A stretch of 64,000 nucleotides of DNA from a virus: positions 15,662-79,661 of IMG/VR virus record IMGVR_UViG_3300008267_000265; one strand, 5' to 3'. The position numbers and the translations under genes were made by a program. Below are positions 11,974 to 45,420 of this stretch, piece by piece (positions within the stretch are counted from its first letter, which is position 1; the number at the start of each line of letters is the position of its first letter). The notes under the pieces are model-generated. The model did no database searches, was not told the origin of the DNA, and saw nothing but the letters and a program-made list of their open reading frames with translations.

Positions 11974-14814
11974 TTAAGCTACACCAGCAACTTGTAGGTC
12001 AGATACATACACCTTACCATAGAATTCAGGACGAACCATTTTCTTAGCGTAACGAGTCATGATACCTTTACGTGGAGTGAAGGTAGTTGGATCGTAGATA
12101 AGAGGAGTCATGATCAATGGAACATAAGGAGCGTAAACAGCACCAGTCTCCAAGAATTGGTTACCTCTGAAGCCCATCAAGATGGTGTTTTCAGTCATGT
12201 ATGGATTCTTGTAAACTTTGTAACGGCTGTTCAAAGAACCAATTTTCTGTACGCCAAATGCATACTTCATTGTATCTGCTGCACCATCAGTATCAGCTGC
12301 AAATCCAGGAATTGATTCCAAGATAGTAGCTACTGTTGGAGAACATACTAAGAAGTTAGCACCACCACGCAAAGTCAACTGGTGAATTTTGTTAGATACA
12401 GCTTGAAGCTTAATACCTAAAGTTTGGAACCAAGACATTTGATTGTAGTATGCACCAGCAGTGTTGCTTACATAAGCGGTACCAGCTGCATTGATTTGAT
12501 TACCAATCTGAGCAGACCAATTAGCAACTGTTGGAGCATTTTCAATCAACATATCCATGATTTCCAAGTCAATTTCCAAAGAAATGTACTCAGACAACAT
12601 ACCAGTCAATTCAGCTTCAGCATCCAATGAGTGGTAAGCATTCAAGTCTTGAGCAAATTCTGGAGTCCATTGTGCTTTCAACTTACGAGTTTTAGCAGAA
12701 ATGGTTTCAGACTTCATCTGAACATTGATTTCTGGAATAACGATCTGAGTTGCAGAAGCAGCGTTTGGATTAGAGAATGGAGTTGGGGTATCGTTTGGAG
12801 CATCTTCGAAGTCACCACGAGTTTGGAAGTTAGTAGCTTTGTTGTACCATACTGCAAGTGAACCTGTGCAAGCTTCGATAGCTGCTCTTGTACCACTAAC
12901 AAAGAAAGTCAAATTACCACCACTTAAAACAGTGAAGTCGTTAATTGTAGTTGATGGAGCGATAACTACACCAGCACTTTGAGATGAATACAATTCAAAA
13001 GCACGAACACCGTTTGAATCAATTGATCCTGTCAAAGATGATGTTGGAACTGTGATAGCCATCATAGTAACAGTTGCACCAGCGATTGACGCTGAGTAAT
13101 CCGCGTTAAAGTTAAGTTGTGCATAGGTAGCTGGTGCTATACTAATAGACGCAGAGCTAACAGATGCAGAGAATTGGTTGATTGAGTAACCAAAACGACC
13201 TTGACCGTAAAGACCACCGTCAGCAGTGTTACCAAATCCGCTATTTGCAGTTTGGGTTAAGTTACCATACAATGAGTTTCCAGCACTGAAAGGCTTAGGA
13301 ACGTTGTTACCGTATTGGAAATCTAGGTAGAATACCAATCCAGCAGGCAAGTTCATTGGTTGAACAGAAACGAACTCTTTAGCAGCGATCTGACCGAAGA
13401 TCTTACGAACCAACGGAAGAGCTACACCAGCCCATTGCTCACCATTACCTGGAGTGAAAGTAGCACCGTTTGTTACGTTACCACCTGTTGATGATTGTTC
13501 CATCACCAATTGTTTTGCTTGGTTTTCCAAGATAGTAGCCATGTTGTTTTTGTCGTAGTCCTTAAGACCTTCCAACAAACCAGATTTGGCCCACTTCTTT
13601 ACAAGCTTCTGGCTAACACCAAGTTGATCTTGGTAAGGGCCAGCAAGCACTTGCCATCTGTTTACGAAGGCGTCTGCTTCAACAATTGGACGAGCTGGGG
13701 CGTTTCCAATTGGTTTTGATGCGAAACCAATAGATTCTTTAATAGATGACTTTTTAGATTCACCTATAGATTCCATTAATGTTTTGTAGGTATTCTCAAC
13801 TTCTTTAACCGATGTTACTCTATCAAATGCATTGATAACCTTAGTCTTTTGAGCTTCGTTAAGATTTTTAGCTTTGAAGATTTTATTTACGTAAAGCATT
13901 TTGGCATTGAACAAATTAACTTCGTTAAGTTCTGCTTTAAGGGCTTTGATAGTCCTAATAGCTTCATTCAACTCTTTCTTTACTTCTTCAACCGCATAAG
14001 AATCAGCAGCTTTAGTTTGGATCTGTCCACCTGGGATGTGTCCTGGTTCAGCAGCTTCTTCCATTTTCTTTTCGTCTTCTTCAAGCTCAGCCAGAATTTC
14101 TTCAAGAGTGATCTCTTTCATTTCTTCGTCGTCTGTGCCTAAAGTAGCCGCCATGTCAGTACCTGCGTCTAAGTCACCTGCTGGTGCTCCGCCGCCTTGC
14201 ATCTGCGTAAATACATCACGGATGATGTCTTTTAGCTCGCCAACTTTCAGTTCAATAACTTCTTCTTCATCAGTTACTGGACCACCGTCGTCATCGCCTG
14301 CTGGTAATTCTGTGTCTGCTTCTTCAGCATCTTCTTCATCACCTTCGTCTTCATCAGCTTCGTGTAGTTTGTAGTCACTGTGAGATACCTTGTCTGATTC
14401 GCTGTAACTACCGTTTTTGTTGCCAGATTTTTTTCCAGCCTTTTCAGTGTAAACTGATTCTTTGCCTTCTTCAATTGATTCATCTTTCATGTCACTTCCG
14501 TCCATGTCTTCTGACAAGGCGTTTAGTTCAGCTAAGATTTCATCAAGAGTAGATTCGTCCATTCGATCTGAATCTTCTGTGTGCATTGATTCGTCCGTTC
14601 CTTCTTCCATGTTAGTACCTTTTTCGTCCATTGATTCTTCAATGTCCTCTTCAATTTGGTCGTCCATGTCTTCAGAAAGTTTTTGACGCATCATTTCTTT
14701 GATCTGTGGCTCAAAATGTTCCGCGAGAGTCGTTCTAGCTGCAGCCATAGCCGTCTCACGTACTGCTTTTGCATCCAAGATCGCTTGTCTGTACAAGTCT
14801 TGATTGCTTTCCAT
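11974..14814 (-). CDS. Prohead scaffold protein joined in frame to T4 gp23-like major capsid protein
   Basis: N-terminal ~390 aa acidic/coiled-coil scaffold ending FVNRWQVLAG; from ~13638 MCP motifs KW.KSGLLEGL, ILENQ, LPLVRKIF, VSVQPM..P.GLVFYLDF, KTRKLKAQWTPEFAQDL.AYH.LDAEAEL, YAPYVPL, TFTPRKGIMTRY. Confidence 0.9.
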   Translation of the reverse strand: MESNQDLYRQAILDAKAVRETAMAAARTTLAEHFEPQIKEMMRQKLSEDMDDQIEEDIEESMDEKGTNMEEGTDESMHTEDSDRMDESTLDEILAELNALSEDMDGSDMKDESIEEGKESVYTEKAGKKSGNKNGSYSESDKVSHSDYKLHEADEDEGDEEDAEEADTELPAGDDDGGPVTDEEEVIELKVGELKDIIRDVFTQMQGGGAPAGDLDAGTDMAATLGTDDEEMKEITLEEILAELEEDEKKMEEAAEPGHIPGGQIQTKAADSYAVEEVKKELNEAIRTIKALKAELNEVNLFNAKMLYVNKIFKAKNLNEAQKTKVINAFDRVTSVKEVENTYKTLMESIGESKKSSIKESIGFASKPIGNAPARPIVEADAFVNRWQVLAGPYQDQLGVSQKLVKKWAKSGLLEGLKDYDKNNMATILENQAKQLVMEQSSTGGNVTNGATFTPGNGEQWAGVALPLVRKIFGQIAAKEFVSVQPMNLPAGLVFYLDFQYGNNVPKPFSAGNSLYGNLTQTANSGFGNTADGGLYGQGRFGYSINQFSASVSSASISIAPATYAQLNFNADYSASIAGATVTMMAITVPTSSLTGSIDSNGVRAFELYSSQSAGVVIAPSTTINDFTVLSGGNLTFFVSGTRAAIEACTGSLAVWYNKATNFQTRGDFEDAPNDTPTPFSNPNAASATQIVIPEINVQMKSETISAKTRKLKAQWTPEFAQDLNAYHSLDAEAELTGMLSEYISLEIDLEIMDMLIENAPTVANWSAQIGNQINAAGTAYVSNTAGAYYNQMSWFQTLGIKLQAVSNKIHQLTLRGGANFLVCSPTVATILESIPGFAADTDGAADTMKYAFGVQKIGSLNSRYKVYKNPYMTENTILMGFRGNQFLETGAVYAPYVPLIMTPLIYDPTTFTPRKGIMTRYAKKMVRPEFYGKVYVSDLQVAGVA

Positions 14815-15510: not shown

Positions 15511-15858
15511 TTAAGCTTTTACGTTTTTCATAGTTCTGGTAAAGTTTGCGTTCGTTGTCTTAGCTATACCAGAGATACTTGCTTTACTACCTTTTTCTAC
15601 GAATTGCTTGATAAAATCATACAACGCTACTGCTTCTTTAGGATCAAGATCCATTTTTATTTGACCCGTACCTATATTTTTAAGGTATAATTTAAGGGTC
15701 GCTGAGTTTGTTACTACTGGTTCTTCTTTCGCACCAACAGCTGCTGGCTCTTGTTCTATGCTACCGTTTGTTTCTTCCATTGATGCTTGGTACTCACCTT
15801 CTGTTATAAGCCCAGCTTTTAACTGCATTAATTTTGCTTCTTTGATTAAGTTTGCCAT
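15511..15858 (-). CDS. Hypothetical head-associated protein with LAG-type leader
   Basis: Starts MANLIKEAKLMQLKAGLITEGEY. Confidence 0.6.
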   Translation of the reverse strand: MANLIKEAKLMQLKAGLITEGEYQASMEETNGSIEQEPAAVGAKEEPVVTNSATLKLYLKNIGTGQIKMDLDPKEAVALYDFIKQFVEKGSKASISGIAKTTNANFTRTMKNVKA

Positions 15859-29588: not shown

Positions 29589-30392
29589 TTATTCGTCGTC
29601 GTCTGGAAATAGTTGGTGTGCTTTGCTTGTATCGATTTTCATGAATTTATTTACATCCTTTGGATCAGCTATGACATAGAATAAGCCGTCTTGCTCTTCT
29701 TCAGATGCTTTTCTTGTTCTGTGATTACCGTCTATCAAGATCCACTCTGTCTTTTTTGATTCTGGATCTTCGAACTTTACTACGATTCCAATTGGCTTGC
29801 TGTAATCTATCTTCATAGCAGCTACCTTTGTAGGTTCTGCTACACTAAACTCAGGATGTGATAACTGCTTCATCATATATGGCTTGAATGGCTTAATGTT
29901 GCTTTTAACCTTTCCTGACTCAATCATTTGGTAAGCCCTTGTTACATCAAACAAATACCTACCGTTGTATGCTGAGAATATTTCATTTTCTGGTTTGATC
30001 TTAGCTTCGCTCATCATCTGCGATGACGCATCTAGATCATAAACACTTAAATTCAGCTTACCGTAATCTCTCATTAAGATACCTGCCATCGCATTTGCTT
30101 CGTTCTCAATCTCCGATCCAGTATCACCTGAGTTAGTTGCGATCATACCAAGCTCGTTCTGTCTGTGGTGTACCAGTTCATGTGCCAAACTTCTACACAC
30201 ATCTGCTAAATTTCTGCCTGGGTAGTACAGTCTTATTTGGTTCTCATGCACACTATACTCACCGTATGATCTAAATTGCTCAACAAAGCTTCTATCATTT
30301 ATCAGTTTAATCACAGGTAGCGACTGTATGTTTAACTCTTCTTTACAGTATCTAATAAAGTGTTTTATTATATCAAGCTTGTTTTGGTTCAT
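29589..30392 (-). CDS. Zn-metallopeptidase-like (HExxH) domain fused to a ParB/Srx-like domain
   Basis: RSLAHELVHHRQ...GSEIENEANAMAG; C-half WILIDGNHR. Confidence 0.65.
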   Translation of the reverse strand: MNQNKLDIIKHFIRYCKEELNIQSLPVIKLINDRSFVEQFRSYGEYSVHENQIRLYYPGRNLADVCRSLAHELVHHRQNELGMIATNSGDTGSEIENEANAMAGILMRDYGKLNLSVYDLDASSQMMSEAKIKPENEIFSAYNGRYLFDVTRAYQMIESGKVKSNIKPFKPYMMKQLSHPEFSVAEPTKVAAMKIDYSKPIGIVVKFEDPESKKTEWILIDGNHRTRKASEEEQDGLFYVIADPKDVNKFMKIDTSKAHQLFPDDDE

Positions 30393-31065
30393 TTGGTATA
30401 GGTGGTGCTTTAGGTATAGGTGGTGCTTCAGGTGTTGCTGGTTCAGCCGGTGCTGGTTCTTCTTGCGGTTCTGGTTGCTCTTCCGGTGGCTGAATTGTTG
30501 CTGTCAGCATTTGAAATATTTTTGGAGCGAATCCTTTATTGTAAGCTGCTTCTGGGATTGTTGTTTTGAATCCCTCATAATCACGCTTTCTCAAAAGCTC
30601 TCTAACGTAGTACGAATTAACTCTACCATCCTTCTCCTGTACTGAGATTGTCTTTAGAATGTTTGGGTATCTTTGTCGTAGACTTTTCATGTATTCCTGA
30701 TCATCCTTCTCATCTTCTCCTCCTGCTACGTAGATTGCTTTTAGATCCTCTTTACCTGCCAAGTATTTAAAGATATCTTCTACTGGACTATCCTCTTCGG
30801 CTATTCTTACTTTGATCTTTGGATTTGGTTCTGCCTTCAAAAACATCTTCCACACTTGCAGTGACTGCTCTGGTGTGAGGCCTTCTTCAGTTTTTCTGCT
30901 TATTATAACAACTACTTCTGTTATATAATTTCTGGATGTGAGATTTTTAGCAGCTTTAAAGTGACCTTTATGAGGTGGCTTGAAACCTGCTGGATAAAAG
31001 CAGATGCCTGCTTCGTTTACAATCTCTTCAACTATTAATTTGGCTATTGATGTGTAGTCAATCAT
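30373..31065 (-). CDS. Cytidylyltransferase-like (HxGH) nucleotidyltransferase
   Basis: FYPAGFKPPHKGH motif; Pro/Glu-rich tail. Confidence 0.75.
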   Translation of the reverse strand: MIDYTSIAKLIVEEIVNEAGICFYPAGFKPPHKGHFKAAKNLTSRNYITEVVVIISRKTEEGLTPEQSLQVWKMFLKAEPNPKIKVRIAEEDSPVEDIFKYLAGKEDLKAIYVAGGEDEKDDQEYMKSLRQRYPNILKTISVQEKDGRVNSYYVRELLRKRDYEGFKTTIPEAAYNKGFAPKIFQMLTATIQPPEEQPEPQEEPAPAEPATPEAPPIPKAPPIPNEPKQA

Positions 31066-32967: not shown

Positions 32968-33339
32968 TTAAGAATCCCATCTGACTATGAACGTCATATC
33001 CGTATTGGATGGGATCGGGTATGGGGTCGCCAATTTACCAACTACTAGTAGATCGTTATTTTCATTGTAAAGACCTATGGTAGTTGCATATGGACGGAAG
33101 TCTGATCCCGTAATATTATCAGCTAATGTACCATCTATAATTTGACCATTTATAGCCGTTTGCCCTGGTGGTGCAAAAAACGGTAATGCTGCTGAGGAGG
33201 TTATACCTGATACCCTAGCAAATACTGATGGATTCTGTGAGTAATTAAAGTCGTTTTCTAAAACTCTACACTTAACCTCGTTCTGATAAATTGTGGTTTC
33301 AGAGGTAAGTCTTAGTTGGTATGGTATTGTTGTTGGCAT
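32968..33339 (-). CDS. Stand-alone C-terminal module of a baseplate/tail protein
   Basis: SETTIYQNEVKCRV.ENDFNYSQNPS...PYATTIGLYN....LLVVGKL..P resembles the C-terminus of 43664..44749. Confidence 0.7.
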   Translation of the reverse strand: MPTTIPYQLRLTSETTIYQNEVKCRVLENDFNYSQNPSVFARVSGITSSAALPFFAPPGQTAINGQIIDGTLADNITGSDFRPYATTIGLYNENNDLLVVGKLATPYPIPSNTDMTFIVRWDS

Positions 33340-33358
33340 GCTTATAAATAGATTATTG

Positions 33359-34303
33359 CTACTGTTTTACTTCAACTACAGCTATATTTGCTGCATACGA
33401 GTACTCATCTGTCATTGGAAACAGCTCTTTACTCTTTGCATAATGTCTTATCATATTTGCAAATTTTTGCCTGTCCATGTCTTTTTTAAAACAGAATTTA
33501 TGAATAAGAAAATCGCAGAGTCTGTGAGCATCTTCTATTGGTTGTACGTTCGTAACAAATTCTTCTTTTGAATAAATTATTCCATACGCATTGTAGAAGG
33601 TGCCTGGAGCATACTGCACGTACGGCACTCCTTTTAGGAGCGCATCCACTGCAAAAGTAGAGTTGAAGGATACACAAAATTCTGCATTGTCTATTATACT
33701 CAACCTTGCTTTTCCATACTTACATCCATACTGCTTTACAATGGCTTCTAACTCTGCGTAGATTTCTCCAGAATTCCATGGATGAAATTTAACAAATAGT
33801 TTATCTCCGTAAAATTTACAGCAATCTCTTACAAACTCTAAGTACTTCTTTGTACTTGTTACGCTCAGTATCGATCTATCTGTTGGATTCTGTAGTATCA
33901 AGACCGGGCCAGTCCAGCTAGCGATCTCACTTTCATTGTATGTTGCATTGTATTTAGATTGCTGATGGGCTGGAAGACTTTGTATCAACTCTCTAGCACT
34001 TTTTTTATCTTCTAGATCAAAGTCAGCCACTGCCTTATAACCAGCTGCTGTGTTTAATGAAATAGTCTGGTAGTTGCCAACTGTATCTATAAAGGATGCG
34101 TTGTGAAAAAAGCCTGTTTCCATCACACCGTATCTATCGCCGTACTGAGCAGTATACGGCTTAGTTCCCCAGTAGACAACATACTCGTAATCTGTTTTAC
34201 TCTTGTGGCTAAAAGTGAATCCTAGCTCTTGAGCCTCTGCTTCTGTTGTTAGCGGTAGCAGTCCGTAGTTAGTTGCGTATGATGGCAGTACTATACTAGA
34301 CAC
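33359..34303 (-). CDS. Putative glycosyltransferase (GT-B; KpsC/KpsS-like C-terminal motifs)
   Basis: ILQNPTDRSI, VKFHP, SFNSTFAVDALLKGVP resemble capsule-biosynthesis KpsC/KpsS motifs. Confidence 0.55.
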   Translation of the reverse strand: MSSIVLPSYATNYGLLPLTTEAEAQELGFTFSHKSKTDYEYVVYWGTKPYTAQYGDRYGVMETGFFHNASFIDTVGNYQTISLNTAAGYKAVADFDLEDKKSARELIQSLPAHQQSKYNATYNESEIASWTGPVLILQNPTDRSILSVTSTKKYLEFVRDCCKFYGDKLFVKFHPWNSGEIYAELEAIVKQYGCKYGKARLSIIDNAEFCVSFNSTFAVDALLKGVPYVQYAPGTFYNAYGIIYSKEEFVTNVQPIEDAHRLCDFLIHKFCFKKDMDRQKFANMIRHYAKSKELFPMTDEYSYAANIAVVEVKQ

Positions 34304-35250
34304 GACTTACTTGCTGTTTCAATGATCTCTCTAACATAGTTATATGTGCAGCTATTAGAGCTATAATCTTCTTGTTGTATACTGTATGGTAGCTCAGTCA
34401 TGTACAAACCCTTGTAAAACTTTCTACCGCAGTTACACACAATACCTGCATTGTGAAAGATTGGACATTCATCCCATCTTTCAACCGGATCTGTTGCCCA
34501 TGCAAAGTTTAGTTCTGGGACTACTTTGACTTCGTTACCTCTCAACCAGCTATTCCATAGCACTGCCCACATATCTGCACACCATATTTGCAGTTCATGG
34601 TAGTTAGGTTCTGTTTCTTTTACCTGGTAGTTTATTTTATTAATCTCAAAAAACATAGTTTCAGCATCTCTTTCAACCTTATGCCAGTAGTCTGCATCAA
34701 CATTTTTAAGAATGTATTGTGCACCTCCTGAGTGTGCGTTGTTTTGTTTAGGTATTTCCGGATCGATACCAACTATCTCACACATCTTTTCATAAACACC
34801 GTAGCCTTTTGACTGGATATACGTGTAGTTTATGTAGCTGTTTGTGTCGCTAACGTACCAAACATCGTCGTTTAGTAGATGATCAAAAGTAGGTTTTCGT
34901 GTAAATAGTGCATCACAGTCGTGATAATATATCGCAGCATCCTTCAATTCAGGGTAAGCTTCAAAGTGCTGCTTCAAGATATTGGGGCGGACTGATGAAA
35001 TGTAGTGAATTGGGTGTGGTCTTGTGTCTCTGTAGAAGTGAAAATTAACAGTTGTATAGTGCTTTTTTAATTTATCCCAAGCACTCACTGCTTCTTGAGT
35101 GTTGGTTCCGTCTATCGGATTCCAAGCAACTAGGATATCAATCTTACTTCCATCTATTCCATGCTTTAGGAAGTTGTTTATTGCAACTTCAACTTGCCAT
35201 GCATAGTAGACTAGGCGTGGTTGAACGCACATGTACCGTAACTCTTTCAT
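34291..35250 (-). CDS. Putative protein O-glycosyltransferase (GT-A; HPAT/SERGT-like)
   Basis: YYAWQ, YISSVRPNILKQHF, DxD (HDCD), GGAQY, WCADMWA, H motif near the C-terminus. Confidence 0.65.
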   Translation of the reverse strand: MKELRYMCVQPRLVYYAWQVEVAINNFLKHGIDGSKIDILVAWNPIDGTNTQEAVSAWDKLKKHYTTVNFHFYRDTRPHPIHYISSVRPNILKQHFEAYPELKDAAIYYHDCDALFTRKPTFDHLLNDDVWYVSDTNSYINYTYIQSKGYGVYEKMCEIVGIDPEIPKQNNAHSGGAQYILKNVDADYWHKVERDAETMFFEINKINYQVKETEPNYHELQIWCADMWAVLWNSWLRGNEVKVVPELNFAWATDPVERWDECPIFHNAGIVCNCGRKFYKGLYMTELPYSIQQEDYSSNSCTYNYVREIIETASKSCLV

Positions 35251-35263
35251 AAACTATTTTATA

Positions 35264-35271
35264 ATAAATAG
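35264..35271 (-). promoter_or_regulatory. Putative late promoter TATTTAT (glycosyltransferase pair)
   Basis: CTATTTAT 13 nt before the ATG at 35250. Confidence 0.55.
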
Positions 35272-35329
35272 CTTAGTATATATCTAAACGAAGAGCTATG
35301 TTGCTTTTAGTGTATTATATTTTTTGTTT

Positions 35330-37765
35330 TTATGTTATAGGATAATAGTTATTAGCCACTTCAGTAATATTAATTAGGGCTGATGCATATGTATAGGCAC
35401 TTGGGTACAGTCCTGTAATGTTGGATGCTACTGACCCACTTCCTATTAGCGTTGTACCACTAGATGGATCGGCTACTCCTTTCCATATAAATCTATAATA
35501 TCGTGATCCATCTAAATTTAGTATACTGCTATAGTTAGTACTTGTAACTGCGCCGTCAGGTGTGTATACCTCGTATATTCTATATGTAATCGGCATATCG
35601 CTCCAACCTATGTAACTTCCAGGTCTCGTTTGCATTCCCGTAACTATTACTTCACCAGCACTTACACCAACAGTTATTGATAGGTCTACTCTATAGACAC
35701 CAGTAGTTGGTACATAAAATCCATCGCTACTATCGTATGTTATTCCTAATGAGTTTTGTATTTGTAATTGCGCTATAGCTTGATAGGTGTCTGCCGTGGT
35801 AAGATCCTGAGATGATGTACTGTATGCTGATATGTAGTATGGATCGCGACTCGGCACTGCTGTTGATGCTGTAGCAAATACTTGTCCACTACTACTAATC
35901 ATTAAAATGTTTGTTGGTAGTGTTACTGGTGTTTGTAGGTCTGGGAAATATATTGAGCCTGATAAATTAGTTGAGCCTGTTACCGTTAAATTATTTCTAA
36001 AGTTGCCATCACCGTCTACGTCAAAAGTATATGCTGAGGATGTTGCTCCTACTATTAATTTAGATCCGTTTCCTCCAGTTTTAGTTCCAGATAGTGATGC
36101 ACTAAGAGCTACTCTACCGTCATCAAAAATTGACAATATATCATTATAAGAGCCGAGTACGAGACCAGCTGTGTTTCTTTCTAAAGAATTAAATCTAACT
36201 CTATTTTGCGATTGAGTATTGCTACCAAACATCTGTATTTCAAATCCAGGATAGTAGGTTGAGGAGGCTGTTACATTACTATATCCAAATGCTATGGCAG
36301 CCCCTCCTGAGGTAAAGTTAGCAACTGATGTGTATACTCCCATCTTTAGGTCACCGTTTCTTTCACTAACTATATTCTCATATTGATTCGTAGCCATGCT
36401 ACCTGCACCATTAATCGCTCTTAAAGAACCTGTTGCGTTTATTGATCCAGTCACTCTGTGTACGTCTGTTAGTGCGTTGCCTATTGTTACACCCGTTCCA
36501 GCCACAGCAAACTCTGTTATACTAGCGCTTGCAACAGTAAATACATTTCCTCCACCTATGTTTACACTGGCAGTTACTGACCCTGTTGCTATTTGCATTG
36601 GTGTTGTACTGACTACACTCAGCGCTGATGAAGCTGTTATAAATAACTGTCCGCTATTATCCATCAGTACGACTTTATCGGCAGTATTTGAGTCTGTTAG
36701 GTTTGGAAATCCAACTGTACCGCTTACATGTAGCGTATATAACGGTGTCCGAGTGCTGATACCAACTCTCGCACTTTGTACTGAACCTGAGAATGGATTT
36801 CCTGTGGTTGTACCGTATGATCCAGTTGCAAAGATCACACCTCCTATGTTGATTGAGTTTCTAGATCCGCTTGGTAATGTAATGTTTGTACCGATGATGA
36901 TGTTGTTGATGCCTACACTCCTCGGTCCCTGTGTAGCTTCGTAACCTGCGTAGTATCCTATGAAGGTCGAGTAGGATGCATTTATTGAGTACGCACCTGC
37001 GTTGTAGCCTATGAAGTTCGAGGATGATGCGGCAGAGGCACTGTAACCTACCCCCGCTCCTATAAAATTTGAATAGTTTGCATTAATCGCTTTTTCACCT
37101 GCTCCGCTTCCGATGAAAGTCGAATAGGCTGCGTTTGTTGCTTGATATCCCGCTTGTGTTCCTATAAAAGTAGAATAAGATGCACTTACTGCTTGGTTTC
37201 CTGCAGAATTTCCTACAAAGTTTGAATTGTCTGCATGTCTTGCGTCGTTGCCCGTATTACTTCCTATAAAATTTGAGTTCGCTGCGTTAGTTGCTCCGAA
37301 ACCTGCTAAGGCTCCTATAAAGTTTGAATTATACGCGTTCGTTGCTTGACGGCCTGCATTCAGACCTATAAAATTGGAATACTGGGCGTTTGTTGCACTT
37401 AGACCTGCTTGGTATCCTAGAAAGTTTGATATGTTTGCGTTTGTTGCATTACCACCCGCTTGATATCCTATAAAGTTTGACTCAGCTGCATTTGTTGCAC
37501 CGTATCCAGCTCCTGTATTTAAAAACACTGAGTTGTTTGCTAGCGTTGCATTATACCCTGCATCTAGACCTAAGAAGATCGATTCCGTTGTATTAACGCC
37601 CGTGGTTGACGGGTCATATGAATATATTGTACTTCCAGTTGTTCGCACTGAACCTAATGGTCCTTCTAGAGCGTAGGATGCTGTACCGTGTAATGATCCT
37701 GTAAATCCTCTGGTTGCTATGATCGATCCTGTTAAGTCAATTGATCCTGATAATATTAGTGGCAT
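35330..37765 (-). CDS. Tail fibre/adhesin with 14-residue SNFIG..AG beta-roll repeats
   Basis: About 15 repeats of NA..S[NT]FIG..AG..AT; ARVGISTRTP; C-terminal beta domain. Confidence 0.7.
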   Translation of the reverse strand: MPLILSGSIDLTGSIIATRGFTGSLHGTASYALEGPLGSVRTTGSTIYSYDPSTTGVNTTESIFLGLDAGYNATLANNSVFLNTGAGYGATNAAESNFIGYQAGGNATNANISNFLGYQAGLSATNAQYSNFIGLNAGRQATNAYNSNFIGALAGFGATNAANSNFIGSNTGNDARHADNSNFVGNSAGNQAVSASYSTFIGTQAGYQATNAAYSTFIGSGAGEKAINANYSNFIGAGVGYSASAASSSNFIGYNAGAYSINASYSTFIGYYAGYEATQGPRSVGINNIIIGTNITLPSGSRNSINIGGVIFATGSYGTTTGNPFSGSVQSARVGISTRTPLYTLHVSGTVGFPNLTDSNTADKVVLMDNSGQLFITASSALSVVSTTPMQIATGSVTASVNIGGGNVFTVASASITEFAVAGTGVTIGNALTDVHRVTGSINATGSLRAINGAGSMATNQYENIVSERNGDLKMGVYTSVANFTSGGAAIAFGYSNVTASSTYYPGFEIQMFGSNTQSQNRVRFNSLERNTAGLVLGSYNDILSIFDDGRVALSASLSGTKTGGNGSKLIVGATSSAYTFDVDGDGNFRNNLTVTGSTNLSGSIYFPDLQTPVTLPTNILMISSSGQVFATASTAVPSRDPYYISAYSTSSQDLTTADTYQAIAQLQIQNSLGITYDSSDGFYVPTTGVYRVDLSITVGVSAGEVIVTGMQTRPGSYIGWSDMPITYRIYEVYTPDGAVTSTNYSSILNLDGSRYYRFIWKGVADPSSGTTLIGSGSVASNITGLYPSAYTYASALINITEVANNYYPIT
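36822..36876. repeat. 55-bp near-identical direct repeat (second copy 38021-38075)
   Basis: 54/55 identity; encodes the LPSGSRNSINIGGVIFATG segment in both fibre genes. Confidence 0.85.
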
Positions 37766-37776
37766 CTGTTTTTATT

Positions 37777-40020
37777 TTATACTATTCTTATTGCTATAAA
37801 GTTTCCGCTTCTATATAACCCTCCTAACGGTACTCCACCTGCTGCGGCTGCAGTATCGTCTGCAAAATTCAAGCTTTGTGATACTTGTGTTAGTATTACC
37901 ATGCCGTGATTGAATCTAGCAGATCCCGATACATCTAATGATGCGCTTGGTGATACAATATTAATACCAACTCTACCGCCTGCTGATCCTGAGGATACAG
38001 TTGAGGTATTTGAATAGGACCCAGTTGCAAAGATCACACCTCCTATGTTGATGGAGTTTCTAGATCCGCTTGGTAGGCTGATGTGGTTTCCAATTATAAT
38101 GTTATTACTTCCTACTGTACGAATGGAATCTGTTGTTGAACCTGCTTGATATCCTATTGCAATGTTATATGATGCGCTAGCTGCATAATAACCAGCAAAT
38201 GTTCCTAAAAATACTGATCGAGATGCGAAGGTTGCATTGTTGCCTGCACCGTATCCGACAGCTGTTGTATTATCTGCTCCTGCAGCTTGTGTACCAGCAG
38301 AGTCCCCTACGAATGTTGAGAAGGATGCACTAAATGCTTGGAGGCCTGTATTTGTTCCTATGAAAACCGAGTTGTTTGCATTGGTTGCACCGTTTCCTGT
38401 GTTACCTCCTATAAAGCTTGAATTATACGAATTCGCTGCATCATTCCCTGCACTACTTCCTATAAAGTTTGAATTGTATGCGTTCGTTGCTTGACCGCCT
38501 GCATTACTTCCTATGAAGTTTGAATTAGATGCGCTGTAAGCGGATATACCAGCAGCATATCCTATAAAGTTTGAGTAATACGCATTTACTGCACTCTGGC
38601 CTGTCTGACGTCCAATAAAATTTGAATGTGATGCGTTCGTTGCACTTCTACCTACATCGCTACCTATAAAGTTGGAGTATGATGCACTTGTTGCTTGTAA
38701 GCCGGTGGAATCTCCTATAAAGTTAGAATAAAATGCATTTGTCGATCCTGATCCAGCAGTTATTCCTATAAAATTAGAACCGCTGGCATTTGTTGCACCA
38801 TACCCTGCATTAAATCCTAGGAAGTTTGATAGGATTGCACTCACTGCTTGATATCCTGCATTTGTTCCTATGAAGCTCGAGCTGGCTGCGTTTGTTGCTT
38901 GAAAGCCTGCACTATTTCCTATAAAATTCGAGTTTGAGGCGCTTACTACTGATTGTGCTGCGTTTCGTCCTAAAAATATACCGTTTTGTGTATTTTGAGT
39001 TGAGAAAGTAGTTATCGATACCGGTGCTGTTGTGTATATTGTACTACCTGTTACATTTATCGGATATGATGATGTTGTAGCAGTTGCTGTAGTTAGTGCA
39101 TACGATGAGCTTACCGAATATGAACTAGTCAAAGCATATGATGAGCTTACCGAATATGAGCTAGTCAAAGCGTACGATGAGCTTACCGAATATGAACTCG
39201 TTAGAGCGTATGAACTACTTAAAGCTGGATTTGTCGATGTGAATATTGAGCCAGTTACATAGCTAGCTGTGCCAAATAAAGATCCAGTTATTCCTTGGCT
39301 TACACTCAGCGATCCTGATATTACAGCTCCGCTGCCAGATACAAGTAAACTGCCTGAAATGACTGCATCACCTGTGTAAGGAAAGGTTGGTGCTGCCACA
39401 AAAGCTGATGATGCTGTGTAGTAGACGTCTCCTGTCGTTTCGTCGTACACCAGTACATTATTAGCACCCGCGTTATCTAGATATCTAAAATTAACAGACC
39501 CGGTTACGCGTAGTGATCCGGTAAATTCATGTGTATTTGTTAGGAGGCTACCAAATCTTGATGAGCCTGTTACGTAGTCTACGCTCGATGTTACAAACTG
39601 TGTAAAGAGTGTAACTGTCGTTAGAGTACCGTTAATTAAGGCACTTGATGCTGTTATTGGTCCGTTTACATTTAGCGATCCAGTTATAGTAGCACCACTT
39701 CCTGATAGTCGTAGACTGCCTGTAATTACTGTATCTCTTAACCTTGTTGTTCCGTCTACATTTAGTGATCCAGTTATGGTAACACCGCTTCCCGATACTA
39801 ATAAACTACCTGATATTACAGCATTTCCTACGTAGGGAAAAGTAGATATTCCACTACTATTTAGAGCATAGGACGCTGTAAATGCGTAACTACTGCTCAA
39901 TACAGTCATTGAGCTCGTTTGAGCACTTGATATAAACGAGGATGATAGGTATAAAAAGTTATCATCCAGCTCCTGGTATGTGAGTGGTAATCCTTTGGTA
40001 AGTCTGAGTGTTAATGCCAT
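37777..40020 (-). CDS. Tail fibre/adhesin with SNFIG repeats (paralogue of 35330..37765)
   Basis: MALTLRLTKGLPLTYQELDDNF anchor; about 20 SNFIG repeats; C-terminal DDTAAAAGGVPLGGLYR motif. Confidence 0.7.
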   Translation of the reverse strand: MALTLRLTKGLPLTYQELDDNFLYLSSSFISSAQTSSMTVLSSSYAFTASYALNSSGISTFPYVGNAVISGSLLVSGSGVTITGSLNVDGTTRLRDTVITGSLRLSGSGATITGSLNVNGPITASSALINGTLTTVTLFTQFVTSSVDYVTGSSRFGSLLTNTHEFTGSLRVTGSVNFRYLDNAGANNVLVYDETTGDVYYTASSAFVAAPTFPYTGDAVISGSLLVSGSGAVISGSLSVSQGITGSLFGTASYVTGSIFTSTNPALSSSYALTSSYSVSSSYALTSSYSVSSSYALTSSYSVSSSYALTTATATTSSYPINVTGSTIYTTAPVSITTFSTQNTQNGIFLGRNAAQSVVSASNSNFIGNSAGFQATNAASSSFIGTNAGYQAVSAILSNFLGFNAGYGATNASGSNFIGITAGSGSTNAFYSNFIGDSTGLQATSASYSNFIGSDVGRSATNASHSNFIGRQTGQSAVNAYYSNFIGYAAGISAYSASNSNFIGSNAGGQATNAYNSNFIGSSAGNDAANSYNSSFIGGNTGNGATNANNSVFIGTNTGLQAFSASFSTFVGDSAGTQAAGADNTTAVGYGAGNNATFASRSVFLGTFAGYYAASASYNIAIGYQAGSTTDSIRTVGSNNIIIGNHISLPSGSRNSINIGGVIFATGSYSNTSTVSSGSAGGRVGINIVSPSASLDVSGSARFNHGMVILTQVSQSLNFADDTAAAAGGVPLGGLYRSGNFIAIRIV
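39104..39213. repeat. Three tandem 36-bp coding repeats
   Basis: gatgagcttaccgaatatga.. at 39104, 39140 and 39176; encodes YALTSSYSVSSS x3. Confidence 0.85.
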
Positions 40021-40061
40021 TTTTTGTAGTTTCTTCCTATATAAATATCACAACTACCTTA

Positions 40062-41891
40062 TTATAATTGTCCACCATCAATTAGATTCCAAGTAGCATC
40101 AGCTATTATGTTGTTTCTAGCTGTTGCTGCTGATGATGGATATTGGATTGTTCCAAAGTTTACAGTCAGGTCTGGTTGTAGTTCTATTAATGACCAACTA
40201 TTCAATATATCACCGTAATTAACTGCTGAGTAATTAGCTGATGTTTTACCAGCCATGAAGTTGATAAAGTTTCTAACGTTTGTAACATTCCAATTATTGA
40301 TTGGTTGGTTGAAATTAGTAGCGTTTTGGAACATAGACTCCATGTTTGTAACAAATGCTACTTCCCATATAGCTGTGTTAGGGGTTGTATTGATTGGTTG
40401 ATTGAAGCTAGTAGCATTCTTAAACATATAGCTCATGTTAGTTACTCTCAATGTATTCCAAGTTGATATACTATAGTTGAAAGCAGTTGCGTCTTCAAAC
40501 ATATGCGACATGTCAGTAACCAGCTCAGTATTCCACGTTGATAACGGTCTGTTAAATACAGTTGCACCGTTAAACATGTAAGACATATCTGTTACTTTAG
40601 CTACGTTCCATGCTCCTACCGGACTATTGTATAAAGGCGTATCTTGGAACATAGCTTTCATTGTAGTAACATTGTTAGTATACCAAGTTGCTACATCACC
40701 TAGGACAGCTCCAAAATTTGCTGCACCGCTAAACATATAAGACATGTCTGTTACATCGGTTGTAGTCCAGCTTGTCAAATCTTGATCAAACGAAGCTGCT
40801 GCACTGAACATACCTGACATGTTTGTTACATTGCTCACATTCCAATTGCCAATGCTTTGATTAAAGAGACTAGCTCCTCTAAACATATCGCTCATATTTG
40901 TCACGTTTGCTAGCGTCGATCCAACTCTCTCCCAATTAGATAGTGCTCTGTTAAAGGAGCTAGCACCTTGGAACATCCCTGCCATGTTTTGAACATTTGT
41001 GACATTCCAGTTTGGTAGTATTGTGTTAAATGTAGTAGCGAACGCAAACATGTATGACATATCTCTAACAAGACTGGTATCCCAGCTGTTAAGGATTTGA
41101 TTGAATACCATTGCGTTGTAGAACATATATGACATGTCTTTAACCCTACTCGTATTCCAGCCACTAACATCGTCGTCAAACTGTTCACAGTTCTTGAACA
41201 TACTTGCCATGTTTGTCACTCTAATTGTATTCCAACTAGTAATATTAGCAATTGTTGTGAGACTTATGCAGTCCTCAAACATTCCACTCAAGTTCGTTGT
41301 ATTCCCTAAAATAAGTGTGTCCGTTACTGCTGATAAATCTAGATTGGTACACCCTTTAAAGTAATTTCCATCATTTCCTAATCTAAGTGGTCCCCACTCT
41401 AGTATACTTGTTAATTTTCTCTCACTAACGCTTATGTTCCAGCCAATACCATTAATTACTCCGTAAATTTGAACAGTGTATGTGCCCGCTACCACGTATG
41501 TATGAAAGGCGTCCGTATCATTCCAAGTTGTCACATTTACGACTGGGCTTCCGTCGCCCCAATCAACGTAAAAGTCATATGTACCGTTGCTTGTAAGTGG
41601 TAAGCTAATTTGTTCGTAAGGGACCGTTGTTGTCCACGTACTTCTGAAATACTGTATAGGTATTGGTATGTCTTGGTAGTTATCACATGTTGCATTTGTT
41701 GATTGAACTCTAACTGAGACAGCACTTCTTGGTACTTGTACTGTAAAACCACTACCTAAAAAACCACTTGGTGGTACACCTATTGCTAGTAGCATTAGAT
41801 TTCCATTTGCATCCACGGAATATACGTCGAACGGTCCTGTTCCAAGACCATTGGCTGTTAATTGTACTTGTACTGTATAATACTGTGCCAT
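40062..41891 (-). CDS. DUF285 / BspA-like repeat surface protein with PKD-like domain
   Basis: About 13 repeats W[ND][TV]..V.[ND]M..MF..A..FN..; VDWGDG...HTY...GTYTV motif. Confidence 0.85.
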   Translation of the reverse strand: MAQYYTVQVQLTANGLGTGPFDVYSVDANGNLMLLAIGVPPSGFLGSGFTVQVPRSAVSVRVQSTNATCDNYQDIPIPIQYFRSTWTTTVPYEQISLPLTSNGTYDFYVDWGDGSPVVNVTTWNDTDAFHTYVVAGTYTVQIYGVINGIGWNISVSERKLTSILEWGPLRLGNDGNYFKGCTNLDLSAVTDTLILGNTTNLSGMFEDCISLTTIANITSWNTIRVTNMASMFKNCEQFDDDVSGWNTSRVKDMSYMFYNAMVFNQILNSWDTSLVRDMSYMFAFATTFNTILPNWNVTNVQNMAGMFQGASSFNRALSNWERVGSTLANVTNMSDMFRGASLFNQSIGNWNVSNVTNMSGMFSAAASFDQDLTSWTTTDVTDMSYMFSGAANFGAVLGDVATWYTNNVTTMKAMFQDTPLYNSPVGAWNVAKVTDMSYMFNGATVFNRPLSTWNTELVTDMSHMFEDATAFNYSISTWNTLRVTNMSYMFKNATSFNQPINTTPNTAIWEVAFVTNMESMFQNATNFNQPINNWNVTNVRNFINFMAGKTSANYSAVNYGDILNSWSLIELQPDLTVNFGTIQYPSSAATARNNIIADATWNLIDGGQL

Positions 41892-41911
41892 TTAGAGTTT
41901 AATTAGTTTTA

Positions 41912-43651
41912 TTAACAGACGATATCAACAAAGCCTTGACTTGGACATGGGTGACTACCTTGAACACCTGCTCTTTCAGCATTGTATGTTGGTCCAGTAG
42001 CTCCCCCCTCTAGTTGAGCTAATCCAAAGCTAGTACATACAAATGGCTCTGTAATAGGTGTAGTAGATCTCACTATAAACTGATCTCCATATGATTCACA
42101 GTTCTCTGAGTCGAATTGCCTTGCGTTATAATAATAATATAGTATGCCACTAGTAGTCGTTGTAGTTGTTGTACTTGTCGTAGTTGTTGTTGTACCGGTT
42201 GGGCATGGTCCTTGTGGTGTTGCTGAACCGAAGCCACTTAATCTTACTACGGTTCCTGTTCTAGCACAAACAAATTTAGGAGATGCTGTAGAATTGACAG
42301 TTATAGGTAGTAGGTCGTTTTTATCACAATCTCTGTACTGGAAGGTTGTCTGTGCGAACGGTGATGCTAATCTATAGTAGGTACATGTCACTGCTGCAGT
42401 AGTCGTTGTAGTCGTTGTACTTGTTGTTGTTGTTGTTGTAGTTGGCGGTGCAGTAGTCGTTGTAGTTGTTGTACTTGTTGTTGTTGTCGTTGTTGTAGTT
42501 GGTACTATAACACTACCTGCTAAGAAACAATCTGCTATACAGCCTATTCCCGATAATAGACTAACGTTAAATAGTATTGGATCGTAATTTATTTCGTTGT
42601 TGCAAACGCAGACTTCTATTTGATTATCATCATTCGTTAATTGGACCGTTTCTGTATTGCCCGTACTACACGCAGTGTATGTAAATGTTGCTGCAGTAGG
42701 TCCTAGATACTGTACGTAATATGTTCTACATATACACGGATCAGGTGTCACTGTAATAGTTACTCTACCACGATTACTTGTTAGTAGGCAGCCCTCGTTG
42801 AAAGTACTATCTACAGTATAATCTACTGTGTAAGTTCCAATTGTTGTTGAATTGAGTGTGATAGTGCCATCTAAATTGTTCGTAAATAACGGTGCATTAC
42901 TTCCATATAGTACTACTGAGGATGGTACTATTGTGCCACTCCCTGCTATATCGTTTGCTATAACGTTAATTGTTTTTGGAACAGTTGATTTTGCATATGT
43001 TCCAAAATCTGGTATTGCAGTCGGTGCTATAGGGAATACATTCTGATAATTAGGGTTTGTTATTACTGCAAATCCTTGTTTATATAAGACATTACCTACG
43101 TGCGTTACTGGACCGTATACATACCAATCTGTAAATTCAGGTACGTAGGCTTGCTGTATAACGTATGGAAGTGCTGATATATCCAACAAGTTACCGTTTC
43201 CATCGTCTACAATAACACCCAGTGATGAGCTAGCCCAGAAGCCGTATCTTGAGATTTGTTGACCGAATACGTTTCTAGGGATTGATATTGCAATAATGCT
43301 ATCTCCTGATCCTGTTGGAAAATTTCTTATATCTGCATCCTCTGTTCCGAATGCTGCTGACGATTGTAGTGAATTATCAAAGCTGGATGTGGTGGTTAGA
43401 TAGGAGCCTGATAGTTGTGCGGTAGTTACTGACCCAGTGAGGTAGTTTGAATAAAAAAGTTGCCTGATTGATCTGTAAATCAGCGTCTCTTCAGGCACTG
43501 ACCCTGTTACTGTCACAGCTCCATTAACTCCTTTGTAAACCGCTATACCTACTCCAGGTGCTGTATTGCAGTCGTATGAAGAAGTATACTTTAGTTTAAT
43601 TGGAGTAGTTATAACATCTGATACCCTAAGGCTATTTGACGATCTACTCAT
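41912..43651 (-). CDS. Baseplate/tail protein N-module plus Ig-like, Cys-rich and poly-Thr segments
   Basis: YRSIRQLFYSNY, VDDGNGNL, VGNVLY..G..VIT; three poly-Thr tracts; Cys pairs. Confidence 0.65.
   Translation of the reverse strand: MSRSSNSLRVSDVITTPIKLKYTSSYDCNTAPGVGIAVYKGVNGAVTVTGSVPEETLIYRSIRQLFYSNYLTGSVTTAQLSGSYLTTTSSFDNSLQSSAAFGTEDADIRNFPTGSGDSIIAISIPRNVFGQQISRYGFWASSSLGVIVDDGNGNLLDISALPYVIQQAYVPEFTDWYVYGPVTHVGNVLYKQGFAVITNPNYQNVFPIAPTAIPDFGTYAKSTVPKTINVIANDIAGSGTIVPSSVVLYGSNAPLFTNNLDGTITLNSTTIGTYTVDYTVDSTFNEGCLLTSNRGRVTITVTPDPCICRTYYVQYLGPTAATFTYTACSTGNTETVQLTNDDNQIEVCVCNNEINYDPILFNVSLLSGIGCIADCFLAGSVIVPTTTTTTTTSTTTTTTTAPPTTTTTTTSTTTTTTTAAVTCTYYRLASPFAQTTFQYRDCDKNDLLPITVNSTASPKFVCARTGTVVRLSGFGSATPQGPCPTGTTTTTTSTTTTTTTSGILYYYYNARQFDSENCESYGDQFIVRSTTPITEPFVCTSFGLAQLEGGATGPTYNAERAGVQGSHPCPSQGFVDIVC
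42151..42501. repeat. Low-complexity poly-Thr coding tracts (gtt/gta/gtc)n
   Basis: Three T7-8-S-T7 tracts within 41912..43651. Confidence 0.9.
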
Positions 43652-43663
43652 TATATTTTTTTA

Positions 43664-44749
43664 TTACCAGTCTAACTTAACTCTGATTAAAGCTTCTTTT
43701 GTGAAATCCTTAACTAAAGGTTTAGATAATTTTGCTACTGCTAGTAGCTCTGTGTTATCATTATACATACCTATAGTTGTAATATATGTCTGTGGACTGA
43801 ATACCATTGTATCAAACAATACGTTACCTGATCCTGAAGTGAAGCTTGGGTTTGATGAGTAATTATAGTCTCCGTTTGCCACTCTTACAAATACGTAATC
43901 TGATGAAATAGTTTCTTCCGAGTTCAGTTGAAAGTATCCAGCAGTATTTAACGCATTATATAGTACTGTGTTATTTGTTGAGGTATATGATGCTGATGCG
44001 TTGAACGAAACTACTCCGTAATTTCTAGTATCGTTTTGGAAGGCGATTCCTCCTGATACTGCTGATAATTTAAGAGCACCTACGTTAAGAATAATTGTAC
44101 CTATGTCAGGTAAGAACAAGCCATATGATCCAGACGCTGTGTAGCCTGGAGCTATTTGATTAGCTGCGGCTGTTGCTGCAGCGTTTCCGTAGGAACCTGA
44201 TACTATATTGAAAACTCTACCACAGTCTAAGTAGCTTACTACTGTTGTATCTCTACTATCATCACATAGTTGTATCTTTGTTCCGGTTGGACCTGTAAGT
44301 TGTAAGTTAAAAGTTCCTGGGAATAGGCTGCCTTTATATCTATTTCTTTCGACGTTAAGTGCATAGATCTCAGGAGCTTGTGTAGATGCACCACCAAAAT
44401 TAAAGCCTTGAGAGCCTGATAACTCAGGTCCGTATATCAAGGTTTTATACTGCTTATAAGTTGATAAAGACGGTGACACTCCCGGTACTAGTTGATTATA
44501 TAGGATCGATCCAGACCCGTTAATATTACCGTAAGCAATTGCGAATTGTACGGCTGATCCGTTAGTTCCTATTGGTAATTGGTATACGTTTAAGTAGAAG
44601 GCTCCGGCTGTAATGGTTGTACTTGGTAGCGGAGGTGCTACATTAAAATTACCAGGAGTTAGTACTGTAAGGTTAGTACTCCAGGCAGGAGCTGTTACAG
44701 AATCAGAGCTTATTACAAAGTCTGTTGGAGCGAATCTTGTAAATGACAT
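43664..44749 (-). CDS. Baseplate/tail structural protein
   Basis: RNRYK..L.PG, NYSSNPSF, PQTYITTIGMYND..ELLAVAKLSKPL.K. Confidence 0.65.
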   Translation of the reverse strand: MSFTRFAPTDFVISSDSVTAPAWSTNLTVLTPGNFNVAPPLPSTTITAGAFYLNVYQLPIGTNGSAVQFAIAYGNINGSGSILYNQLVPGVSPSLSTYKQYKTLIYGPELSGSQGFNFGGASTQAPEIYALNVERNRYKGSLFPGTFNLQLTGPTGTKIQLCDDSRDTTVVSYLDCGRVFNIVSGSYGNAAATAAANQIAPGYTASGSYGLFLPDIGTIILNVGALKLSAVSGGIAFQNDTRNYGVVSFNASASYTSTNNTVLYNALNTAGYFQLNSEETISSDYVFVRVANGDYNYSSNPSFTSGSGNVLFDTMVFSPQTYITTIGMYNDNTELLAVAKLSKPLVKDFTKEALIRVKLDW

Positions 44750-44763
44750 ATTATATTATATTA

Positions 44764-45420
44764 TTATGATCTTGTTATTTGAACTGGGATAAATAATCTT
44801 GCACCTGAATCGCGGCCGACAATTGTCAAGGTCGTGTATAAGGTTGTATTGGAGCCGAATAAAGTATTCACAGTCGTTGCTGTAATGTTAATACTTGTAC
44901 CAATCACCGTCTTAGATACTTCTGTTCCAACTGTTTGAGTAGCGGCATTCAAGGTTGTTGCCTGAGCTGTGTTGATACCAACTCCGTTAAATGCTGCAGT
45001 TGTTCTCACATCTCCAATTGTTGCAACATATCCTGATTGCTCGAAGGTCGAAGTTGCACCTAGGTAATTAAGAGTTTGTGGTGTTATTGTAGTTGAGCCA
45101 CCTTGTGGTAAAATGATTGACGGTCTACCTGCAGTAATTACAGGCAACTTAGCTGTTCCTCTCGGTAATGTGATTAGCTTGTACTTCATAATCTCATTTG
45201 ACTGAGGGAATGCTTGTACAATTGGCATATTCTCAATAGCTTCTCCGTAGAACGCTGATCCGGATGGATGGTTTGGATTATACAAAGTGTAATCAACTTC
45301 GTCATCCGATAGTGAAAATTGTGTAATTTGAAATGAACCGTTATTCTGTGCTAGTAGTTCTCGACCTTTGTCAGTCAATATAGCATCTACAACAACCGAT
45401 GTGTTACTTAAATATCCCAT
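44764..45420 (-). CDS. Baseplate-associated structural protein
   Basis: MGYL.N....VDAILT.KGRELLA...F.ITQF.L.DDEVDY.LY, MKYKL.TLP. Confidence 0.65.
   Translation of the reverse strand: MGYLSNTSVVVDAILTDKGRELLAQNNGSFQITQFSLSDDEVDYTLYNPNHPSGSAFYGEAIENMPIVQAFPQSNEIMKYKLITLPRGTAKLPVITAGRPSIILPQGGSTTITPQTLNYLGATSTFEQSGYVATIGDVRTTAAFNGVGINTAQATTLNAATQTVGTEVSKTVIGTSINITATTVNTLFGSNTTLYTTLTIVGRDSGARLFIPVQITRS

Follow-up and report, generated by a model that had tools for sequence, protein, structure and literature searches.

A soluble GT-A glycosyltransferase encoded beside phage virion genes is a candidate O-glycosyltransferase of poly-threonine tracts

We analyzed a stretch of viral DNA of 64,000 nucleotides (hereafter the window), which corresponds to positions 15,662 to 79,661 of the IMG/VR record IMGVR_UViG_3300008267_000265. 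The record has a length of 79.7 kb and is about 49% complete as estimated by CheckV. The gene under study lies on the minus strand at 34291-35250 and encodes a protein of 319 amino acids that belongs to the family phrog_4417 and is predicted to adopt the GT-A glycosyltransferase fold. Genes of this family stand next to virion genes in many phages, and a poly-threonine (poly-Thr) tract is frequently encoded directly upstream. The best reading of these data, and one we hold to be likely, is that the soluble enzyme O-glycosylates virion proteins. Comparison of the loci suggests further that it is probably the initiating transferase.

An earlier reading made from the letters alone (the sequence-only reading) had picked out four ordered motifs in this gene. 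All four are present, namely YYAWQ (residues 15-19), YISSVRPNILKQHF (residues 83-96), YYHDCDALF (residues 108-116, with the DxD motif D111-C-D113) and WCADMWA (residues 223-229). An alignment with 43 homologues of 33-65% identity revealed that they fall on conserved columns of the family and are not chance strings. W18, Y83, D113, M227 and W228 were invariant, and Y15, Q19, D111 and W223 were kept in at least 90% of the rows. The alignment also identified Q178, H266 and K280 as invariant or nearly so. H266-N-A-G269 together with K280 follows the order of the HxxGxxK-type motif near the C-terminus of GT8 enzymes, in which the His is the third metal ligand and the Lys binds phosphate, but with a different spacing. 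Taken in order, D111-x-D113, Q178, H266 and K280 would correspond to the residues that bind metal, sugar and phosphate in GT8 enzymes.

The protein matched the profile of phrog_4417, a family of unknown function, with E = 4.8e-60 (residues 5-311 against positions 2-290 of 293). Searches of Pfam, NCBIfam and PDB sequences gave no match, and no Pfam family was returned at E<=1. The sole return of the PDB-sequence profile search were TAL-effector repeats; these were summed weak repeat matches of less than 4 bits each and were rejected as spurious. The family comprises 2,734 clusters at 90% identity (word-indexed search) and 931 representatives at 50% identity (exhaustive profile search), and it includes P0001, a relative with 93% identity. 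Seventy-seven cultured phage genomes carry a copy, with hosts among Lactobacillus, Enterococcus, Staphylococcus, Lactococcus, Clostridium and Chryseobacterium.

The fold was predicted with AlphaFold on the basis of 23 homologues. The model reached a predicted local distance difference test score (pLDDT) of 93.2 and a predicted template modeling score (pTM) of 0.90. It revealed a GT-A fold with a single Rossmann-like alpha/beta/alpha domain, in which D111-x-D113 directly follows the central strand. In an all-against-all structural search the top matches were LgtC (14.5), glycogenin (14.2), Skp1 alpha-galactosyltransferase (13.9) and the catalytic domain of UGGT (13.6), followed by the C-terminal domain of WbbM (13.2), GlyE (13.1) and LARGE1 (12.6). 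Foldseek agreed with this search in that the nearest solved folds were retaining GT8/GT24 enzymes. Proteins or protein-bound glycans are the substrates of some of these structural neighbors and lipo-oligosaccharide that of one, but none acts on DNA, and the structural outcome that the sequence-only reading had named as a refutation did not arise. The likeness is one of fold. LgtC (1g9r), glycogenin (1zcu), Skp1 AgtA (6mw8), UGGT (6fsn) and GlyE (5gvv) share 8-11% identity with the phage enzyme, the chain of which is about 60 residues longer. The Pfam GT8 model (PF01501, Glyco_transf_8) matched neither the window protein nor any of the 43 homologues, and a PDB-sequence profile search with the enzyme family recovered no glycosyltransferase. 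No signal peptide, membrane helix or N-terminal hydrophobic helix was seen in the model, where the chain opens with a strand at residues 4-11. Judged by the model, the enzyme would be a cytoplasmic, nucleotide-sugar-dependent glycosyltransferase of the retaining GT8-like type. It is probably metal-dependent because of the DxD motif.

The sequence-only reading had labeled the enzyme as plant-type, similar to HPAT/SERGT (GT95/GT96). This label found no support. The Pfam HPAT model (PF23452) gave no match at E<=1 to the window protein. When 43 diverse homologues were searched, one matched with E = 0.23 and the other 42 did not match at all. There was no match within the window's own virus record, nor in 25 homologue-bearing phage records in a search that ran without a positive control. 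The sole pointer to HPAT was a cluster of language-model neighbors (Atlas), in which 10% of the members carry PF23452. The PDB searches brought up no solved structure of GT95 or GT96. We do not file the enzyme under GT95 or GT96; the comparison was made with the Pfam profile of HPAT, which neither shows nor excludes a distant relationship.

The sequence-only reading had also proposed a survey of the neighborhoods of homologues, and this survey carries our main argument. A tract was defined as at least 8 threonines in 12 residues, and all stop-to-stop frames on the strand of the enzyme were scored at every locus. The sample held 177 loci with 140 distinct enzymes, including 170 IMG/VR loci that came from three different queries. 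A poly-Thr tract within 500 bp upstream of the enzyme and on the same strand was found in 98 of 173 loci, against 0 of 170 downstream. Within 1 kb the counts were 111/168 upstream and 0/163 downstream. When the 140 distinct enzymes were clustered, the pairing was seen in 38 of 53 clusters at 70% identity, in 15 of 18 at 55% and in all six at 45%. A cruder, gene-based count was carried out on the first 87 loci (80 from IMG/VR, six cultured phages and the window). Here, the next gene upstream carried the tract at 57 of 85 loci, compared to a background of about 1% for other genes. The pairing is thus present in all six deep clades, and in each of them other particle proteins bear the tract.

Among the cultured phages, the particle protein that bears the tract varies from phage to phage, but its gene always comes directly before that of the enzyme. 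The enzyme gene itself lies beside structural genes, at the end of a baseplate/fibre block in the window and inside the head/tail operon in the phages iLp84, VPE25, phiCTP1 and SA2. In Lactobacillus phage iLp84 the homologue is flanked by the head genes on one side and by the head-tail adaptor on the other. The preceding protein of 125 amino acids consists of threonine to about one half, and the major head protein of this phage also ends in a poly-Thr tail. A Thr-repeat protein of 115 amino acids is encoded directly before the homologue in phage Semele, and two Thr-rich genes are found just upstream of it in Chryseobacterium phage MA9V-3. The tail tube protein of Clostridium phage phiCTP1, encoded upstream of the homologue, has the C-terminus TTTTTNAPITTTTTTV. 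In Staphylococcus phage SA2 the major tail protein ends with STTTTTTTTP and is followed by an out-of-frame poly-Thr frame (L006:5667-5930), and such a frame also follows the capsid gene of Enterococcus phage VPE25 (L002:5750-5900). Both frames look like products of a programmed frameshift, which would place the tail on a fraction of the subunits. Neither of the two stretches has an obvious start codon of its own.

In the window, the poly-Thr gene (41912-43651) is located four genes upstream of the enzyme, and a DUF285 protein and two Ser/Thr-rich fibres are encoded in between. Close relatives, in which the poly-Thr gene abuts the enzyme, do not have the two fibre genes at the corresponding position. 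Beyond residue 207 the 579-residue protein of the window contains an immunoglobulin (Ig)-like region and then Cys-rich modules that are joined by poly-Thr linkers. We asked how enzyme and tract are distributed in this lineage. Therefore, loci were anchored on the 218-residue gene, which is 73-89% identical across 80 loci sampled regardless of the enzyme, and the 9 kb downstream were scored. Enzyme and tract occurred together in 14 loci and both were missing in 34, while three loci had the enzyme without the tract and one had the tract without the enzyme. Fisher's test gave p = 5e-9, a value that overstates the evidence since the kinship of the loci is uncorrected. On the anchor tree each trait required about 10 changes, only 2 inner branches were well supported and an independent-pairs test had no power.

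The relatives show what stands in place of the poly-Thr protein. The enzyme-less loci L184 and L193 carry an orthologue of 201 amino acids at the same position, and the L184 copy is 55% identical to residues 1-207 of the 579-residue protein (E = 8e-60). The enzyme-bearing locus L180 shares this N-terminal domain and has its own tract-bearing extension. The enzyme-less relatives thus have the domain in a tract-free form, and therefore the tract extension and the enzyme come together. The conserved domain is presumably the part that attaches the protein to the particle. The slot between the 361-residue and the 123/124-residue gene (32968-44749 in the window; compared with L180, L181, L184 and L193) is variable. 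In relatives it holds either the 201-residue gene and a gene of 469 residues or a poly-Thr protein plus transferases, and the window adds three fibre-type genes.

We also considered the idea that a baseplate gene had been split, which was only half right. The 123-residue open reading frame (ORF) is homologous to the C-terminus of the 361-residue protein (E = 1e-11), but the N-terminus of the 579-residue protein is unlike the 361-residue protein (E = 0.74). A 124-residue gene of matching size and position, the presumed counterpart of the 123-residue ORF by synteny, occurs on its own in relatives whether or not they have the cassette. Because of this, the 123-residue gene is not regarded as a fragment left over from an insertion.

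The gene that overlaps the 3' end of the enzyme gene encodes a second transferase of 314 amino acids. It has the two-domain fold of the KpsC/WbbB retaining beta-Kdo (3-deoxy-D-manno-oct-2-ulosonic acid) transferases and is thus GT107/GT99-like, with an identity of 13-16% to these enzymes. H174-P175, Q138 and D142-R143 are invariant in its family (27 homologues) and may include the counterparts of the conserved His-Pro motif and of the catalytic Asp nucleophile (KpsC D160, WbbB D232). In Pfam it had a single weak match, which was to the polysialyltransferase family (E = 0.0012) and missed the cut-off. In contrast to KpsC and WbbB, which are encoded in capsule or O-antigen loci, the 314-residue protein is encoded in a phage structural cassette. 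A correspondence of this gene to the C-terminal half of fused homologues was tried and dropped, as BLASTP found no similarity.

The follow-on enzymes differ from locus to locus. In fused homologues the phrog_4417 domain is usually N-terminal and other glycosyltransferase domains come after it. The domains fused to its C-terminus were GT6, GT2, GT32-like, GT25-like, radical SAM and methyltransferase. Genes downstream of the enzyme in relatives encode GT2-family (21 loci), GT6 (nine loci), GT32-like (eight loci) and radical SAM/SPASM proteins (nine loci), and also methyltransferase-like proteins. Hence, the enzyme is constant and its follow-on enzymes are variable, and domain types found downstream are also found fused to the enzyme C-terminus. 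The largest downstream cluster (41 loci, e.g. L060:2539-3411) encodes a protein of 290 amino acids directly after the transferase. This protein has no Pfam match, its residues 27-82 resemble an L-rhamnose-binding lectin (PDB 5h4s, E = 5e-7), and it may be a sugar-binding partner. Homologues that are fused to a radical SAM/SPASM enzyme or followed by one (P0129 with 658 amino acids; L123:6903-7949) hint that the sugar or the peptide is modified further.

Initiation of O-glycosylation on virion proteins was already the proposal of the sequence-only reading. Comparative genomics supports O-glycosylation of virion proteins well; the most likely acceptor is, however, the poly-Thr protein at 41912-43651 and not specifically the two adjacent fibres. 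We propose that the enzyme would put the first sugar on threonine hydroxyls of the poly-Thr linkers of this baseplate-attached protein, before or during particle assembly. The two Ser/Thr-rich fibres may be additional acceptors. The overlapping KpsC/WbbB-like enzyme would then add a Kdo-like ulosonic acid from a cytidine monophosphate (CMP)-sugar. The particle would thereby carry a short glycan, mucin-like and acidic. It might confer protease resistance, stiffen the linkers, or serve adhesion or shielding.

A wider proposal can be built on the survey, and we put it forward tentatively, as it may well be wrong. According to it, phrog_4417 would be a widespread, dedicated polypeptide Thr O-glycosyltransferase, with which phages of many bacterial phyla build a mucin-like brush on poly-Thr tags of capsid, tail and fibre proteins. 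Some of the tags would be made by programmed frameshifting and the variable enzymes would diversify the glycan. In the phage of the window, a Kdo-like acidic sugar would mimic the surface polysaccharide of the host.

Several points weigh against virion O-glycosylation by this enzyme. The glycan on poly-Thr proteins is predicted from comparison, and the linkers could be purely mechanical. About one third of the loci have no poly-Thr tract within 1 kb, and in the window the poly-Thr gene is 6.7 kb away from the enzyme. The 80-locus samples are dominated by related aquatic phages. Only 2 independent pairs lie on supported branches of the anchor tree, and the lineage statistic is weaker than its p-value implies. 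Finally, the nearest solved folds include the glycan extenders LgtC, GlyE and the Skp1 transferase, and the predicted fold leaves unsettled whether the enzyme starts or extends a glycan. This last point bears on the possibility that the enzyme extends a glycan which a host enzyme or a neighboring gene product had begun on the poly-Thr tracts. Indeed, LgtC, GlyE, Skp1 alpha-galactosyltransferase, UGGT and LARGE1 all act on sugar acceptors. Nevertheless, we consider extension unlikely. The enzyme is the one constant enzyme beside the tracts, whereas the accompanying transferases vary or are missing, and in the complete genome of iLp84 (39 kb) the homologue is the only annotated glycosyltransferase. 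Both observations argue for initiation, and the usual N-terminal place of the phrog_4417 domain in fused forms also speaks against a role in extension.

Other acceptors than virion proteins have to be weighed as well. The enzyme might alter a glycan of the host envelope, be it lipopolysaccharide, capsule or teichoic acid, with a block of superinfection or easier release as possible benefits, and its adjacency to structural genes would then be incidental. Envelope-modifying transferases encoded by phages are well known, LgtC and WbbM are envelope-glycan enzymes, and the partner gene resembles capsule/O-antigen Kdo transferases. We judge a host-envelope role to be improbable. It leaves unexplained why, in unrelated phages, poly-Thr tracts on capsid, tail-tube and fibre proteins are paired with the enzyme strictly on its upstream side and never downstream, and why enzyme and tract are gained and lost jointly. 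Moreover, in the temperate phage iLp84 the gene has head and head-tail adaptor genes on its two sides and is remote from the integrase/lysogeny region; virulent phages carry the enzyme too, and the model has no membrane anchor. Glycosylation of hydroxymethyl-pyrimidine bases in the phage DNA as a means of restriction evasion appears very improbable to us. Phage DNA glycosyltransferases are diverse (10.1101/2023.12.21.572611; PMC13326640), and the enzyme gene borders replication genes in the window. However, a hydroxymethylase of the thymidylate-synthase family was found neither in the window record nor in four relatives that are at least 95% complete nor in iLp84, while the control genomes matched. 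Its absence from the window record weighs little, since this record is about half complete, and the complete relatives are more telling. A search for TET/JBP domains also returned none, with a control that was uninformative. The gene is located inside the head/tail operon in five cultured phage lineages, and there was no DNA glycosyltransferase among the structural matches.

The surroundings of the gene are summarized in Table 1. All large genes of the window are on the minus strand. In the direction of this strand they encode a baseplate wedge protein, a 1548-residue protein, the 218-, 361- and 579-residue proteins, the DUF285 protein, the two fibres and the enzyme. The enzyme gene is followed by the overlapping 314-residue gene, the 123-residue gene and genes for an endonuclease, a primase and an exonuclease; farther on, terminase, portal and major head protein are encoded. 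The sequence-only reading had placed the enzyme inside a phage tail module. It borders fibre genes, but sits at the 3' edge of the baseplate/fibre block, beside the endonuclease, primase and exonuclease genes. Its place directly after two Ser/Thr-rich fibre genes was confirmed, with 24% and 29% Ser+Thr compared to a window mean of 17%. The DUF285 protein lies among the fibre genes and was matched by Pfam in five stretches with E = 2.9e-127. Repeats of this type are typical of surface proteins.

Table 1. Features of the window that are discussed in the text.
Feature	Position	Strand	Basis or remark
GT-A glycosyltransferase gene (the enzyme), phrog_4417, 319 aa, predicted soluble	34291..35250	minus	ORF, profile, predicted fold, alignment
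TATTTAT motif, promoter-like, 13 nt before the enzyme ATG	35264..35270	minus	
Second transferase, 314 aa, GTG start, overlaps the 3' end of the enzyme gene by 13 nt	33359..34303	minus	
Candidate substrate, 579 aa; residues 1-207 are the N-terminal domain kept across the lineage	41912..43651	minus	
Poly-Thr linker 1, residues 385-418, TTTTTTTTSTTTTTTTAPPTTTTTTTSTTTTTTT	42398..42499	minus	
Poly-Thr linker 2, residues 487-501, TTTTTTSTTTTTTTS	42149..42193	minus	
Two Ser/Thr-rich fibre genes, 811 and 747 aa (35330-37765, 37777-40020), 24% and 29% Ser+Thr	35330..40020	minus	
DUF285 repeat protein, 609 aa, third of the inserted genes that separate poly-Thr gene and enzyme	40062..41891	minus	
Conserved 123-aa gene, downstream edge of the variable cassette slot	32968..33339	minus	stands alone in relatives with and without the cassette
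Conserved 361-aa and 218-aa baseplate-region genes, upstream edge of the cassette slot	43664..45420	minus	

A late-type TATTTAT motif had been described 13 nt upstream of the enzyme gene. Motif and spacing are exact, and the term late-type is plausible because TATTTAT precedes the portal, terminase, head and fibre genes. The total number of copies in the window does not exceed chance (36 copies against an expected 28.9). The placement is what stands out: of the 29 copies on the coding strand, 16 are found 0-40 nt ahead of a start codon, and zones of this kind make up 4.2% of the window (binomial p = 4e-15); no permutation of the same letters does equally well. These 16 minus-strand sites, among them 18249, 22925, 31072, 33344, 35264, 40041, 54516 and 61330, are found 4-39 nt before the starts. 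At several genes only 4-6 nt separate the motif from the ATG, a distance that leaves no room for a classical -10 box plus leader. The motif may act as a promoter of transcripts that are leaderless or have a short leader, or alternatively as a signal for translation.

Two further genes of the window were noted, both on the minus strand. The gene at 30373-31065 encodes a protein of 230 amino acids, the N-terminal part of which contains PPHKGH, a motif of the HxGH nucleotidyltransferase type. The protein weakly matched a cytidylyltransferase phrog (E = 8e-7) and, with E = 0.018, pantetheine-phosphate adenylyltransferase, and it ends in the proline-rich tail PPEEQPEPQEEPAPAEPATPEAPPIPKAPPIPNEP. 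The ORF of the major head protein at 11974-14814 has 946 codons for amino acids, of which the head-protein profile spans only residues 402-925, so that about 400 N-terminal residues are unexplained.

A full-text literature search returned no report that links phage poly-Thr tracts to a glycosyltransferase or characterizes the phrog_4417 family. Phage particles have traditionally been regarded as free of glycans. As an exception with experimental proof, we found only a set of mycobacteriophages cited. If virion glycosylation by phrog_4417 enzymes holds true, it would be a common trait of aquatic phages and of phages that infect lactic acid bacteria, enterococci, staphylococci and clostridia. 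This would bear on phage stability, on adhesion to mucus and polysaccharides, on antibody recognition in phage therapy and on proteomics, which misses glycosylated peptides. It would also make available a Thr-O-glycosyltransferase that is simple, soluble and single-domain and comes with a genetically encoded tag, and this could be of use for glyco-engineering in bacteria. The idea of poly-Thr glycosylation is directly testable in cultured phages that already exist.

The closest known phage system is that of the mycobacteriophages Che8, Corndog and Myrna, which are reported to glycosylate capsid and tail-tube proteins by means of phage enzymes whose genes lie in the structural operon or close to it (PMC12363180, PMC11256854, PMC4351075, citing Freeman et al. 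2023). The two systems share phage-encoded glycosyltransferases in or next to the structural genes and accessory enzymes such as methyltransferases, and action in the cytoplasm, as in the mycobacteriophages, is predicted here too. The system presented here appears to differ in the enzyme family, which is phrog_4417 without a Pfam match, and in the predicted acceptor, which is pure poly-Thr. Furthermore, the phages in which we found phrog_4417 were aquatic phages and phages that infect lactic acid bacteria, Enterococcus, Staphylococcus and Clostridium, with no actinophages among them.

The plant and algal enzymes HPAT (GT95) and SGT1/SERGT1 (GT96) start O-glycosylation on hydroxyls of repetitive structural or wall proteins (PMC8012813). 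They are Golgi type II membrane proteins that act on hydroxyproline or serine, whereas the phage enzyme is predicted to be soluble and is paired with threonine runs. The model shows no type II anchor, and an enzyme that a phage makes inside a bacterium would work in the cytoplasm and not in a secretory pathway. In function, the analogy is apt, as initiation on repetitive structural proteins is just what we propose for the phage enzyme.

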